The translations under genes and the position numbers were made by a program. This document shows positions 21,509 to 54,616 of a stretch of 64,000 nucleotides of DNA, one piece after another. Every line of letters begins with the position of its first letter. The first letter of the stretch is position 1. A model generated the notes under the pieces. That model did no database searches. It was not told the origin of the DNA and saw nothing but the letters and a program-made list of their open reading frames with translations. Origin of the DNA: a virus; the IMG/VR virus record IMGVR_UViG_3300023179_000058, positions 1 to 64,000 of that record; one strand, written 5' to 3'.

Positions 21509-21584
21509 GCACCTATCGTCTAACGGTTAGGACGGCGCCCTTTCAAGGCGCAAACGGCGGGTTCGATTCCCCCTAGGTGTACCA
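21509..21584 (+). tRNA. tRNA-Glu(UUC)
   Basis: Cloverleaf; CT-TTC-AA; CCA. Confidence 0.92.
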
Positions 21585-21798
21585 TATTAAAACGCATTGG
21601 GTTACCAAGCCAGTAGGTACCTTAGTAGAGAATTATTCCTAGTGACGGCTAGGCTCTGCTAAGACTACATGAAGCCTCCCGAGGGTGCTGGAACAACTTG
21701 GCAAGTAATGTGGTTGATAGACAAGTCCGTGGACGGCACGGTAGGGCAGGTTCAAAACTGTTTCTTCTATCAAACATCCTAATGCGTTTTAATATGGT
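21581..21798 (+). ncRNA. unknown structured RNA closed by an 18-bp perfect terminal stem
   Basis: ACCATATTAAAACGCATT / AATGCGTTTTAATATGGT; internal hairpins; no credible ORF. Confidence 0.55.
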
Positions 21799-21949
21799 AC
21801 CATTTGTTAAGTGTTATCAAGGTATCGTGTATGGACGCATACACTATTCGGGTCAAAGCGGCCGGCGACTGATCCTGATATAACTGCTATCGGCTGTGGC
21901 ACGGAAGCACCGGACGCCTAAATTTAGCGGATAACACTTAACAAATGGT
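21799..21949 (+). ncRNA. unknown structured RNA closed by a 20-bp perfect terminal stem
   Basis: ACCATTTGTTAAGTGTTATC / GATAACACTTAACAAATGGT; internal hairpin GTGTATG-GACG-CATACAC. Confidence 0.55.
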
Positions 21950-47642: not shown

Positions 47643-47910
47643 AAAACAAAAAGAGATTATGAGCATTGCACAGGAAGAATGTGCAGAAGTTGTTCAAGCA
47701 ATTAGTAAAATTTTTAGATTCGGATTAGATGAATCATTCGAAGGTAAGACTAATCGCGAAAGATTGACAAGTGAACTAGGTGATCTTCAATGCATGATTA
47801 CACTACTTAAACAGTATGAAGTAGTTGATGATTTTAAAGTACATCAAGCCGAACTTGCAAAAAGAACTCGCCTTAGCAAATGGTCTAACATCTTTACTGA
47901 GGTACAGTAA
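47620..47910 (+). CDS. MazG-like NTP pyrophosphohydrolase
   Basis: EECAE...ELGD motifs. Confidence 0.8.
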   Translation: MNNYYLDEKQKEIMSIAQEECAEVVQAISKIFRFGLDESFEGKTNRERLTSELGDLQCMITLLKQYEVVDDFKVHQAELAKRTRLSKWSNIFTEVQ

Positions 47911-48716
47911 TGATCGTTCTCTACGGGCATGGCTATGTTGCAGATTACATAGCCAAAGAAATGCATAAGCAATCATTTAAGTTTGTTCGCTTAACGCATC
48001 ATGCATTAGTACCTAAAGATGCAAAGTTTATTGTCAATGCCGCAGGCTTTACGGGCAACCCTAATGTAGATGCTTGTGAGGTTTTGCGTGATGAGTGCGT
48101 AGACGGAAACATTCGATGGCCACTTAAACTTGAAAGAATCGCAAGCCAAATTTCTGATATTCCAATTCTACACATTACTAGTGGTTGTGTGTATACTGGC
48201 TATGATAAAGAATGGACAGAAAATGATCCGCCAAACTTTACATTCAACAATGCTTCTTTCTATAGCGCATGTAAAGCATTGGCACAAGAACTACTATCGC
48301 CATATATGAACAAGTCATATTTGTTCCGAATTCGTATGCCATTTGGTCCGCACATTCACCACAAGAATCTATTGACAAAATATGAAAGATATGCTAAACT
48401 TGTAGACTATGAGAACAGCGTAACACAGGTTGAAGATTTAGCAAAATGTGTTTGTCATTTCATCATGATAAAACCAACATATGGAATTTATAATGTTTGT
48501 AATCCTGGCAGTACTAGCACGAAAGAAATTGTTGCAGAAATGGGGCTCCATAAAGAATGGATGACTCATGATGATTTTGCTAAGGCAGTAGTTGCGCCGA
48601 GAAGTAATTGTGTGCTAAATACTAAGAAGTTGGAAAGTGTGTATGCTATGCGGTATGCTGACCAAGCGGTAAGCGAAACAGTACGCACATACTTATCACA
48701 CAATCTTTACTTATGA
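47910..48716 (+). CDS. RmlD-like nucleotide-sugar 3,5-epimerase/4-reductase
   Basis: GFTGNPNVDACE, SGCVY, YSACK and RIRMP motifs. Confidence 0.8.
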   Translation: MIVLYGHGYVADYIAKEMHKQSFKFVRLTHHALVPKDAKFIVNAAGFTGNPNVDACEVLRDECVDGNIRWPLKLERIASQISDIPILHITSGCVYTGYDKEWTENDPPNFTFNNASFYSACKALAQELLSPYMNKSYLFRIRMPFGPHIHHKNLLTKYERYAKLVDYENSVTQVEDLAKCVCHFIMIKPTYGIYNVCNPGSTSTKEIVAEMGLHKEWMTHDDFAKAVVAPRSNCVLNTKKLESVYAMRYADQAVSETVRTYLSHNLYL

Positions 48717-48776
48717 CTGTATGAAGCAAAGAGAAAAGTGTTCTGGACGCGGGTTCGACTCCCGCCTGGTCCACCA
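48715..48776 (+). ncRNA. ssrA: permuted tmRNA, acceptor piece
   Basis: GGACGCGGGTTCGACTCCCGCCTGGTCCACCA = T-arm, 3' acceptor strand and CCA. The 5' boundary is approximate. Confidence 0.9.
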
Positions 48777-48793
48777 TAAGGAGATTTGTAAAC

Positions 48794-49180
48794 ATGGCAT
48801 ATTCCGATAAAGTAGTTGACCACTATGAAAACCCAAGAAATGTTGGATCGTTTGACAAGAACGATACTGATGTTGGTACTGGCATGGTTGGTGCTCCTGC
48901 TTGCGGAGATGTTATGAAACTACAGATAAAGGTTAATCATAAGACAGGTATTATTGAGGACGCCCGTTTTAAGACATACGGATGCGGGTCGGCAATCGCA
49001 TCAAGTTCTCTTGTCACAGAATGGGTCAAGGGCAAGACTCTTGACGAGGCGGCAGGTATTAAAAATTCTGAGATTGCAGAAGAACTCGCCCTCCCTCCAG
49101 TCAAAATACACTGTTCAATACTTGCTGAAGATGCGATTAAGTCAGCAGTAGAAGATTACCGAAAGAAAATCTCTTTATGA
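48794..49180 (+). CDS. iscU: Fe-S cluster scaffold IscU, inside the tmRNA intervening segment
   Basis: HYENPRN, APACGD, GCGSAIAS and LPPVKIHC motifs. Confidence 0.96.
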   Translation: MAYSDKVVDHYENPRNVGSFDKNDTDVGTGMVGAPACGDVMKLQIKVNHKTGIIEDARFKTYGCGSAIASSSLVTEWVKGKTLDEAAGIKNSEIAEELALPPVKIHCSILAEDAIKSAVEDYRKKISL

Positions 49181-49181
49181 T

Positions 49182-49350
49182 GGGCCAGTCATGGTTTCGA
49201 CAGGGCAAAGAGTAACAGAGTAGACAGTCCGGTAGATGACGACCGTAAATCGCATAAATAAAGTAAACGCAAACGATGAAAAGTTCGCATTGGCAGCCTA
49301 AACGCTGACTAGGGTTTCGGTGAGTTTCCTCGTAACAGAATAACTCACCA
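49182..49350 (+). ncRNA. ssrA: permuted tmRNA, coding piece (tag ANDEKFALAA)
   Basis: 5' GGGCCAG pairs with CTGGTCC including G3-U70; D-loop ...TTTCGAC; tag ORF 49269-49301. The 3' end is approximate. Confidence 0.9.
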
Positions 49351-49466
49351 CTAATTTTGGATAGTTGTAGTCGGCGGCAAAACCCGTTAGGCAGACCTAA
49401 CTTTGGATTGCTTTATGATAACGAACCGAAATGATTTTTAATTTTTTAACCTCTAAGGGGAATTTT

Positions 49467-52644: not shown

Positions 52645-53295
52645 ATGAAATTTGCTCTTCAATGTTCATATGATGCAGGCTATGCAGTTCTTGGCGATTT
52701 GACATGGTATAAAAATAAAGTCAAGTATTGTGAGAAACATGGATACACGCCTGCACTACACATTTATACTAAACCTTTGCTTCCTCATAGTTACATGAAG
52801 ATGTTTCATGTGAGAGAACTTTTCAAAGAAAATAAACACGATTGGATATGGGTTACTGGTTGTGATTCTATGATCACAAACATGACTGTAAAATTAGAAG
52901 ATATTGCCGATGAAAACTATCATCTAATTATTGCTACAGATGTTAATGGGCTGAACGCTGATAGTTTTTTGATTCGCAATTCTGAAGAAGGTAGATACTA
53001 CATTGATTATATTATTAGTGGAGTTGATACTTACAGAAACCATCATTGGGCTGAACAGCAAGCCATGATGGACTGCCAAGATAAATTTAAAGACATTACT
53101 AAATTTGTTCCTCAGAGAACATTTAACTCTTATAACTATGATTTTTATCCTCATTGTGCCAAGCCAAATTTAGATAAGTTAGGAACAGATGGTAATTGGC
53201 AACATGGAGATTTTCTAATTCACTGGCCTGGACAAACTTTGGAGCGAAGACTCCAGCATTTTGAACGATATTCACAAAGCGTAATTTATGATTGA
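52645..53295 (+). CDS. GT34 (GMA12/MNN10)-like glycosyltransferase
   Basis: KYCEKHGY, WIWVTGCD, EQ, FNSY and GDFLIHWPG motifs. Confidence 0.75.
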   Translation: MKFALQCSYDAGYAVLGDLTWYKNKVKYCEKHGYTPALHIYTKPLLPHSYMKMFHVRELFKENKHDWIWVTGCDSMITNMTVKLEDIADENYHLIIATDVNGLNADSFLIRNSEEGRYYIDYIISGVDTYRNHHWAEQQAMMDCQDKFKDITKFVPQRTFNSYNYDFYPHCAKPNLDKLGTDGNWQHGDFLIHWPGQTLERRLQHFERYSQSVIYD

Positions 53296-54616
53296 TAAAG
53301 AAAAAATTCTGACAGATATTGCACACTATATCTGGCAACAGAAAGAACAGAAGACTTGGACTCCAGGAAAAGACTTTGTAAACTATGCAGGTCCATTCTT
53401 TGATGAGCATGAAATTATCGTAGCAGTTCGCACACTACTAGATGGTTGGCTTGTTATGGGTGATGATTGTGCAAGATTCGAAAGAAAGTTTCCGCGCGAG
53501 TTTGGTAAAGAGTGCGGCATTCTAACAAACTCTGGTTCTAGTTCTAATCTTTTAATGATGGCTTCGCTTACATCAAAGCGCGGACACAATCTACCTAAAG
53601 GCACAAAGGTACTAGTTCCTATCGCAGGATTTCCTACGACACTCAATCCAACACTACAAGTAGGGTTCGAACCAGTCTTTGTTGACATTGAAATTGATAC
53701 ATTGAATCTAGACTTAGATCAGGTTGTTGATATTCTAGATTCTGATCCAGACATTCGCGTAATTACATTCGCGCATGTACTAGGCAATCCTCCAAACATG
53801 GATTGTCTCATGGACATTGTGAAGCACTACAATCTTATTCTATTAGAAGATTGCTGTGACGCACTCGGATCAACATACGATGGTAAGCCTCTTGGTTCAT
53901 TTGGTGAAATGGCATCATGTTCATTCTATCCCGCACATCACATGACAATGGGTGAGGGTGGCTTTGTCGCATGTAACACTAACGAACAAGAAGTTATTCT
54001 CCGTTCATTCAGAGAATGGGGACGCGGTTGCTATTGCGTAGGACCGAAAGCAAACAAACTCAAGTGCGGTACTTGTAAAGAACGATTCAAAGAATGGATA
54101 CCTGAACTACCAGGAGAAATTTTTGATCACAAGTATGTCTATGATGAAATTGGATACAATCTAAAGCCTATTGAACTGCAAGGTTCAATAGGAATGATTC
54201 AATTAGATAAACTAGAACAGATTCATGAATTGCGTAGACGCAACTATAAAATGCTTTTTGACATTTACGCCAAGTACGAAGAATTTTTTAGTCTACCAAG
54301 AGCAACACATAAGTCAGACCCATCATGGTTTGCTTTTCCTCTAACGATTCGTAAAAATGCGCCATTTACGCGAAGTGAAATTGTTGACTATCTTGAAGAC
54401 AATTTGATTCAAACACGCCCATACTTCGCTGGCAACATCATGCTTCAGCCTGCGTATAGTCATCTTATGAATCCCGCAGACGCTAGAGATTATTTCCCGG
54501 TCGCAACATATGCAATGACGCATACATACTTTCACGGAACTAGTCCAGTGATTACGCCACAGCAGATTCAATATATCGGTGATGTGGTAGATAACTTTAT
54601 AAAAAGCAAGGTATGA
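53288..54616 (+). CDS. rfbH: CDP-4-keto-6-deoxyglucose 3-dehydrase (RfbH/DdhC family)
   Basis: NSGSSSNL; SFYPAHHMTMGEGG (His in place of Lys); GRGCYC...CGTC Fe-S motif; YDEIGYN. Confidence 0.85.
   Translation: MIDKEKILTDIAHYIWQQKEQKTWTPGKDFVNYAGPFFDEHEIIVAVRTLLDGWLVMGDDCARFERKFPREFGKECGILTNSGSSSNLLMMASLTSKRGHNLPKGTKVLVPIAGFPTTLNPTLQVGFEPVFVDIEIDTLNLDLDQVVDILDSDPDIRVITFAHVLGNPPNMDCLMDIVKHYNLILLEDCCDALGSTYDGKPLGSFGEMASCSFYPAHHMTMGEGGFVACNTNEQEVILRSFREWGRGCYCVGPKANKLKCGTCKERFKEWIPELPGEIFDHKYVYDEIGYNLKPIELQGSIGMIQLDKLEQIHELRRRNYKMLFDIYAKYEEFFSLPRATHKSDPSWFAFPLTIRKNAPFTRSEIVDYLEDNLIQTRPYFAGNIMLQPAYSHLMNPADARDYFPVATYAMTHTYFHGTSPVITPQQIQYIGDVVDNFIKSKV

Follow-up and report, generated by a model that had tools for sequence, protein, structure and literature searches.

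Why would a phage place the gene of an iron-sulphur (Fe-S) scaffold protein between the two halves of a stable RNA, and why should the two ends of that insert be complementary to each other? The question is raised by a locus in the window analysed here, a stretch of 64,000 nucleotides (nt) comprising positions 1 to 64,000 of IMG/VR record IMGVR_UViG_3300023179_000058 (a phage contig with a length of 89,765 nt and a completeness rating of 55%), in which the iscU open reading frame (ORF) occupies the intervening segment (IVS) of a permuted, two-piece transfer-messenger RNA (tmRNA) gene. An earlier note, made from the letters of the window, had reported that the region carrying the iscU Shine-Dalgarno sequence (SD) pairs with the last codons of iscU. 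The pairing is real and far beyond chance. The reading that we consider likely is that the stem is the conserved terminal IVS stem of a betaproteobacterial-type phage two-piece tmRNA, the loop of which became a slot for protein genes, occupied here by iscU; the stem thereby imposes the I-S-L end of the protein, and would also be expected to close the SD and to make translation and tmRNA maturation mutually exclusive.

The two arms, ACCATAAGGAGATTT (48773-48787) and AAATCTCTTTATGAT (49167-49181), are antiparallel and form 13 Watson-Crick pairs and one G.U pair (48780/49174), with a single C.A mismatch (48774/49180), so that 14 of the 15 positions pair, just as the earlier note had read them. 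Because A73 (48773) pairs with U-1 (49181), the helix runs on without a gap from the first acceptor pair, G1(49182):C72(48772), and acceptor stem and extension together make a continuous helix of 22 base pairs (bp) with one mismatch. The joint 22-nt arms (48766-48787 and 49167-49188) constitute the longest inverted repeat of the region in an inverted-repeat search. At one fixed register and the composition of the window, at least 14 of 15 pairs would arise with a probability of 1.3e-5; in a scan at the same offset, 3 of the 63,591 positions tested in the window do as well. Duplex energies of -14.8 and -29.0 kcal/mol were calculated for the 15-nt arms by themselves and for the arms together with the acceptor stem, respectively. 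Both tmRNA cut sites lie inside this helix, whose 5' arm contains the SD and whose 3' arm contains the stop codon. The minimum free energy and centroid folds of 48700-49400 both contain the stem, which supports, at the level of predicted folding, the proposal of the earlier note that it brings the two tmRNA halves together. In the precursor, the predicted unpaired probability is 0-0.07 across 48777-48787, and the SD is predicted to be at least 93% paired; in the excised IVS the corresponding probability is 0.01-0.18, every position of the 11-nt 5' arm being at least 82% paired.

On every sequence test, the gene surrounding this stem belongs with the permuted tmRNAs. ARAGORN reports a permuted gene (tmRNA*) at 48682-49392 on the plus strand with the tag ANDEKFALAA, and the Rfam model RF04321 (tmRNA_permuted) scores 127.5 bits (gathering score 47) over 48715-49301, spanning model positions 1-213 of 213 and placing about 390 nt as a loop insertion between the two acceptor strands. 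The NCCA-bearing 3' half of the tRNA-like domain stands upstream of the 5' acceptor strand, the acceptor stem contains the G3.U70 pair, and the tag frame ends in hydrophobic ALAA followed by a stop. The gene also resembles the betaproteobacterial type described by RF01850, for which its 67.1 bits stay under the gathering score of 84. The Rfam models show the IVS region as an unpaired loop. As the coding piece begins at 49182, the IVS is to be read as 48777-49181, a small correction.

The single ORF of the IVS encodes an IscU Fe-S scaffold by three tests: Pfam NifU_N PF01592 (3.3e-55, 186.1 bits against a cut-off of 22), NCBIfam TIGR01999 iscU (224.8 bits against 192.4) and an alignment to the solved IscU of PDB entry 2l4x (1.5e-67 over residues 1-125). 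The segments APACGDV, YGCGSAIASSS and LPPVKIHCS, which we take to be the cluster-ligand motifs of IscU, are identical between the window protein and the solved structure; the three ligand cysteines and the LPPVK/His-Cys motif are thus in place. Within the IVS, the SD is at positions 2-7, the ATG at position 18 and the stop codon 1 nt before G1.

The stem itself extends well beyond this locus. A family sample collected with a pattern made of the start of the coding piece and the GAT leader gave at least 120 viral loci, or 121 matches with the window, and the fractions below refer to the matches listed. An upstream acceptor piece was recognisable in 114 of the 121 by a pairing-based rule; the remaining seven are truncated at an end, lack an encoded CCA or take another form. 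These matches hold 102 distinct IVSs of 29-405 nt, that of the window being the longest, and 104 when two further iscU-bearing segments, L205 (402 nt) and L206 (399 nt), are added. Covariation was counted gap-free from both ends of the IVS, taking positions 0-10 after the CCA against their partners before TGAT. Across the 102 distinct IVSs, these positions are paired in 91% of cells, with three to six pair types at positions 0 and 3-10, while sliding the partner by 1-3 columns left 41-57% paired and 500 column shuffles averaged 66% and never exceeded 69%. Even IVSs of 29-30 nt retain a helix of similar total length, and the stem is shared by the 71 distinct IVSs, among the 104, that hold no ORF.

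Scanning bacterial genomes with the coding-piece pattern carried the comparison into cellular genes. In 23 genes of the Azonexus/Dechloromonas type, none of which encodes the whole CCA, a 9-12-bp hairpin with compensatory differences between copies is formed by the 25-34 nt that precede G1. Since the phage IVSs covary and the cellular hairpins stand at the same place, the helix extension is an ancestral feature of this tmRNA type; and since it is present in ORF-less IVSs, in cellular genes and around unrelated ORFs, the stem predates iscU. The view of the stem as a device of iscU, taken in the earlier note, is therefore not upheld. Many of the 78 bacterial-genome matches proved to be one-piece tmRNA genes preceded by a promoter, and the apparent IVSs of more than 700 nt in L215, L284 and L251 were false pairings of a distant CCA. 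The scan also turned up ORF-bearing spacers of the phage type on short contigs in metagenome-assembled genomes labelled Bifidobacterium (L236) and Alteromonadales (L257), which are probably phage contigs binned by mistake, as well as phage-like, CCA-encoding copies with spacers of 29-114 nt in genomes of Cupriavidus, Pelistega and Robbsia.

What the stem encloses varies. An ORF was counted if it began with ATG at least 5 nt from the CCA and had at least 20 codons; ATG alone was admitted because a listing with GTG and TTG starts was crowded with spurious frames that continued into the coding piece. The rule drops L122 and counts as ORF-less L085, L111, L117, L120, L137 and L086, in which frames with an SD and an ATG read across G1. 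On this count 33 of the 104 distinct IVSs carry an ORF, starting 7-18 nt after the CCA; 27 of these use as stop codon the TGA within the TGAT leader, a single base short of G1, and the other six stop 10-14 nt earlier. The full design, namely an SD in the 5' arm, an ATG within about 18 nt of the CCA, an ORF filling the loop and a stop at the leader TGA, is found in 27 of the 104 IVSs, that of the window among them. An SD-like 4-mer occurs in the first 12 nt of 26 of the 33 ORF-bearing IVSs, as against 10 of the 71 ORF-less ones (Fisher p=1.8e-10). Related 101-nt IVSs in L085 (3006-3130), L111, L117 and L120 contain an SD and an ATG opening a 38-codon frame that passes the TGAT leader and crosses G1 into the mature coding piece, so that an RNase P cut would leave a message lacking a stop codon.

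The products of the slot are unrelated to one another. Besides IscU in the window, L205 and L206, they include a complete thioredoxin of 84 residues with a WCGPC motif (L178:209-476; Pfam 4.1e-21), which ends in -VSL, a PGDYG-family protein (L125:315-562; 27.8 bits against a cut-off of 27), several proteins of 39-75 residues belonging to no family, and a set of hydrophobic peptides of 22-27 residues. Rfam confirmed complete permuted tmRNA genes around L178, L101 and L125. With its 128 codons, iscU is the largest known tenant of this conserved, stem-closed slot in phage tmRNA spacers, among the matches listed. In a tree of the mature tmRNA parts, near-identical backbones bear different IVSs (L117 versus L135; L106, L115 and L100; path lengths of about 0.01), and the three iscU-bearing backbones fall into three separately supported clades, with 3 changes forced by the starred branches. 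Both observations point to an exchange of spacers between backbones, and the spacer thus appears to be swapped as a cassette.

Being part of the stem has consequences for the encoded protein. Homology of the window IscU to the solved protein ends at K125, after which DYRKK is followed directly by ISL. The C-terminus was compared with 78 free-standing IscU proteins from viral contigs; these continue from DYR(K/N)(K/R) into H and a variable tail, and an SL end occurs in 1 of the 78. Among the 27 ORFs ending on the leader TGA, with their unrelated products, the tails are SL (nine), LL (seven), FF (five) or one of LY, FL, YF and LF (six together), residues that are set by the T-rich 3' arm encoding them. 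Coding constraint is further apparent from the three iscU IVSs of the window, L205 and L206, which are 77-81% identical overall (127 of 405 columns vary) and in which the last 17 nt are invariant; just 4 of 391 windows of 15 nt are invariant, and two of these four correspond to the last 17 nt. As judged from these alignments, the 3' arm dictates the protein C-terminus, in agreement with the earlier note, which had suggested that RNA structure constrains the C-terminal codons of iscU.

The additional iscU loci came from a pattern scan of metagenomes, which returned six loci, three of them holding iscU inside the IVS: L205, L206 and L207, the last cut by a contig end. The other three, L203, L204 and L208, were chance pattern matches in bacterial isc operons and were dropped. 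L205 and L206 score 120.9 and 103.6 bits with RF04321 and were both missed as tmRNA genes by ARAGORN, which implies that long ORF-bearing spacers can hide a tmRNA gene from routine annotation. The acceptor stems and T arms of these loci differ from those of the window and from each other. Between the window iscU and those of L205 and L206 there are 50-57 synonymous and 11-12 non-synonymous codon differences, and iscU is therefore under purifying selection. The sole change in the 5' arm among the iscU loci is a G to A substitution in L205, by which the G.U pair becomes A-U and the SD is weakened. The covariation to which the earlier note had looked as a check thus gives a divided answer, in that the four iscU loci offer one one-sided change and no double compensation, whereas the wider family covaries strongly.

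In the phage genome collection no relative of the iscU-in-tmRNA arrangement was found, the iscU matches there being L001, a bacterial-looking isc operon filed as phage, and L002, a free-standing cyanophage iscU; a junction pattern scan of viral contigs gave no match. Among 80 viral loci chosen by IscU similarity, one (L022) has a tmRNA nearby. There (L022:1501-2598), iscU-iscA lies immediately upstream of a permuted tmRNA gene and outside it, and the 108-nt IVS has the stem and no ORF, a neighbourhood that represents a possible route of capture.

To function, a tmRNA needs its CCA end to be free and its 5' end to be generated by RNase P. In our preferred reading, the stem would prolong the acceptor helix by about 11-15 pairs, close the spacer and keep the two tmRNA halves in register, and it most likely marks where the precursor is cut, with RNase P acting in front of G1 and 3' processing behind the CCA. 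The purine-rich 5' arm would have been tuned into an SD sequence, and the reading frame passes through the T-rich 3' arm to end at the TGA of the conserved TGAT leader, as a result of which IscU would have lost its own tail. A standing helix is predicted to hinder initiation at iscU by closing its ribosome-binding site, and a ribosome at the last codons would have to melt the stem together with the acceptor helix. Because the ribosome must open both, translation and maturation of one and the same molecule would exclude each other in time, and the source of IscU would be either the tmRNA transcript or the spacer cut out of it; the precursor, an intermediate of acceptor piece plus spacer, and the free spacer are the candidate templates.

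Several points weigh against this reading. Since the GAT leader and a portion of the coding piece were preset in the pattern behind the family sample, the fractions given above describe the matches listed rather than estimating a population. Occlusion of the SD is a thermodynamic prediction, and the stem left after excision has 11 bp and -10.2 kcal/mol with which to close a 379-nt loop. IVSs with an ORF have slightly less stable stems than those without (-13.0 versus -15.3 kcal/mol; 2.0 versus 1.2 G.U pairs), which could mean selection against tight closure, although it also fits a compromise among SD sequence, coding and pairing. The order of the cuts and the enzymes are assumed from general knowledge of tRNA and tmRNA, and all the phage loci are metagenomic. 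In addition, no two-sided compensatory change was found among the four iscU loci, and the IscU protein tree (125 columns, with unsettled bootstrap values) does not separate one capture from several.

How far do other explanations account for these observations? An AT-rich region and short arms might suggest that the complementarity is a coincidence, a notion whose probability is practically negligible in view of the fixed-register calculation and is refuted by covariation across 102 IVSs that exceeds every shuffle. It is likewise very improbable that iscU is an untranslated passenger, brought in by recent insertion or by an assembly artefact, next to an SD-like arm that is coincidental in a purine-rich stem. 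The arms of ORF-less IVSs are indeed purine-rich already (AAAG...), and ten of the 71 contain an SD-like 4-mer; such a passenger, however, would hardly recur at four independent loci on diverged backbones, keep the excess of synonymous differences and the intact ligand motifs, or be accompanied by an enrichment of the SD in ORF-bearing IVSs as strong as that observed. A different possibility, to which we give rather low credence, is that the helix serves chiefly as an RNase III site, both strands being cut so that the spacer is freed as iscU mRNA and short tails are left for RNase P and exonucleases, with translation control as a by-product. RNase III requires about two helical turns, and the length of the continuous helix, its energy with the acceptor stem and its single mismatch would suit the enzyme, as would the similar total helix length kept by 29-30-nt IVSs and the comparable stems of 18-20 bp that start at ACCA after tRNA-Glu elsewhere in the window. 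The cellular hairpins, however, extend just 9-12 bp beyond the acceptor stem, and the SD or the final codons would be lost or shortened if the enzyme cut within the arms.

The pairing might instead have evolved as a switch specific to iscU, with iscU translation and tmRNA maturation competing for one transcript. We regard this as possible and still on the unlikely side. It draws on the predicted pairing of the SD within the helix, on the position of the stop codon 1 nt from G1, which would oblige a terminating ribosome to open the acceptor helix, and on the invariance of the arms among the iscU loci (the single change in L205 apart) despite an overall divergence of 19-23%; what argues against it is that the same stem is found in the 71 ORF-less IVSs, in cellular genes and around unrelated ORFs. 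A bolder extension, improbable in our estimation, would make the helix a two-way switch between messenger and tmRNA precursor: with SD and stop codon face to face in a message closed into a loop, a terminating ribosome would melt the 3' arm and the acceptor helix, which would free the SD for a further round (self-sustaining translation, possibly by re-initiation in cis) and deprive RNase P of its substrate. If so, the stop codon would lie one base from the 3' end of the spacer after the RNase P cut, termination there would compete with trans-translation by the newly released tmRNA, and the supply of IscU, or of another cassette product, would be tied to ribosome rescue by an inbuilt timer or dosage coupling. 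The conserved terminal stem with a gene slot in its loop remains the reading we favour, and Table 1 gives the layout of the locus to which it applies.

Table 1. Layout of the permuted tmRNA gene and the iscU-bearing spacer in window coordinates (columns: feature, position, strand, basis)
Acceptor piece of permuted tmRNA	48715..48776	+	ARAGORN (gene start 48682), RF04321 from 48715, sequence
T arm	48749-48765	+	sequence
Acceptor 3' strand CTGGTCC	48766-48772	+	sequence
Discriminator A (A73)	48773	+	sequence
5' arm of helix extension, ACCA plus first 11 nt of IVS	48773..48787	+	sequence, energy, inverted repeat, family covariation
Encoded CCA	48774-48776	+	sequence
IVS, 405 nt; removal needed to free CCA end and G1	48777..49181	+	RF04321 loop insertion
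SD AAGGAG	48778-48783	+	sequence
iscU ORF, ATG at 48794, 128 codons plus TGA; last residues I-S-L encoded by 3' arm	48794..49180	+	Pfam, NCBIfam, PDB alignment
3' arm: codons (A)AA ATC TCT TTA, stop TGA 49178-49180, U-1 49181	49167..49181	+	sequence; invariant in window, L205, L206
tmRNA coding piece	49182..49392	+	ARAGORN, Rfam alignment, sequence
Acceptor 5' strand GGGCCAG, with G3.U70	49182-49188	+	sequence
Tag reading frame ANDEKFALAA then stop	49269-49301	+	ARAGORN

The surroundings of the locus bear on its expression and possible use. Upstream lies an ORF of 268 codons (47910-48716) without a Pfam or NCBIfam match, which terminates on the first bases of the tmRNA gene; no promoter-like site was found between the two, and tmRNA and iscU may share a transcript with this ORF. 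A sugar-modification cluster 4 kb downstream of iscU includes an RfbH/DdhC-type 3-dehydrase (53288-54616; NCBIfam equivalog, 437.8 bits against a cut-off of 423), a class of enzyme that carries a [2Fe-2S] cluster. The phage IscU may supply phage Fe-S enzymes, such as this RfbH-type dehydrase. Elsewhere in the window, in which ARAGORN finds 26 tRNA genes, two back-to-back cassettes directly follow tRNA-Glu (21581-21949), each starting with ACCA, having a closing stem of 18-20 bp and a 3' arm ending in TGGT. They have the same CCA-swallowing stem design as the tmRNA spacer, with structured RNA inside rather than an ORF.

The spacers of stable-RNA precursors are usually treated as disposable. In this family, the tmRNA spacer would be a conserved and exchangeable expression site, large enough for a full housekeeping gene, in which the stem used in processing also supplies the ribosome-binding site and the stop codon. 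The -SL tail common to unrelated proteins offers a clean natural case in which RNA structure dictates protein sequence, and the arrangement would connect translation with stable-RNA maturation in a way open to experiment. It further indicates how phages may boost the Fe-S supply for their own enzymes. For annotation, it means that gene callers and tmRNA finders each see half of the locus.

Full-text literature searches covering PMC11915505, PMC9004378 and PMC3978253, with the founding two-piece tmRNA papers and supplements lying outside them, yielded no description of a protein gene in a tmRNA IVS. The accessible portions of the 2025 tmRNA database paper (PMC11915505) list 79 phage sequences and report IVSs occupied by a tRNA-Ala gene or by a repetitive element, as well as T-loop group I introns with homing-endonuclease ORFs, and no protein gene in an IVS. 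Such inserts share with the window the presence of foreign sequence in a part absent from the mature RNA; as presented there, however, they are self-splicing introns or RNA genes, whereas in the window a metabolic gene uses the processing stem as SD and stop, and splicing is not needed. The OM43 phage Melnitz and the pelagimyophages (PMC9004378) resemble our phage in being aquatic phages with a permuted ssrA; the accessible portions of that article place a riboswitch in the 3' domain of the phage two-piece tmRNA, describe no ORF and do not contain the word 'intervening'.

The closest relatives are the cellular permuted tmRNAs of RF04321 and RF01850, as in Azonexus and Dechloromonas, which have the same order of acceptor piece, IVS and coding piece, the G3.U70 pair, the GAU leader before G1 and a tag of the ANDE.FALAA type, and in which the ends of the IVS likewise pair to prolong the acceptor helix. 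They differ in that their IVS is an ORF-less hairpin of 25-34 nt, whereas the loop in the window has 379 nt and contains iscU. In the icaR mRNA of Staphylococcus aureus, a long-range pairing of the 5' and 3' regions reportedly hides the Shine-Dalgarno sequence. There, as in the window, the 3' end of a message pairs with its ribosome-binding site; the window pairing differs in belonging to the helix of a stable-RNA precursor and in including coding sequence and stop codon, and its effect on translation is a predicted one. In mitochondrial tRNA punctuation, tRNA-processing enzymes define the ends of mRNAs, as they would at this locus. The difference is that the window mRNA is enclosed from both sides by one tRNA-like domain and not flanked by two tRNAs.

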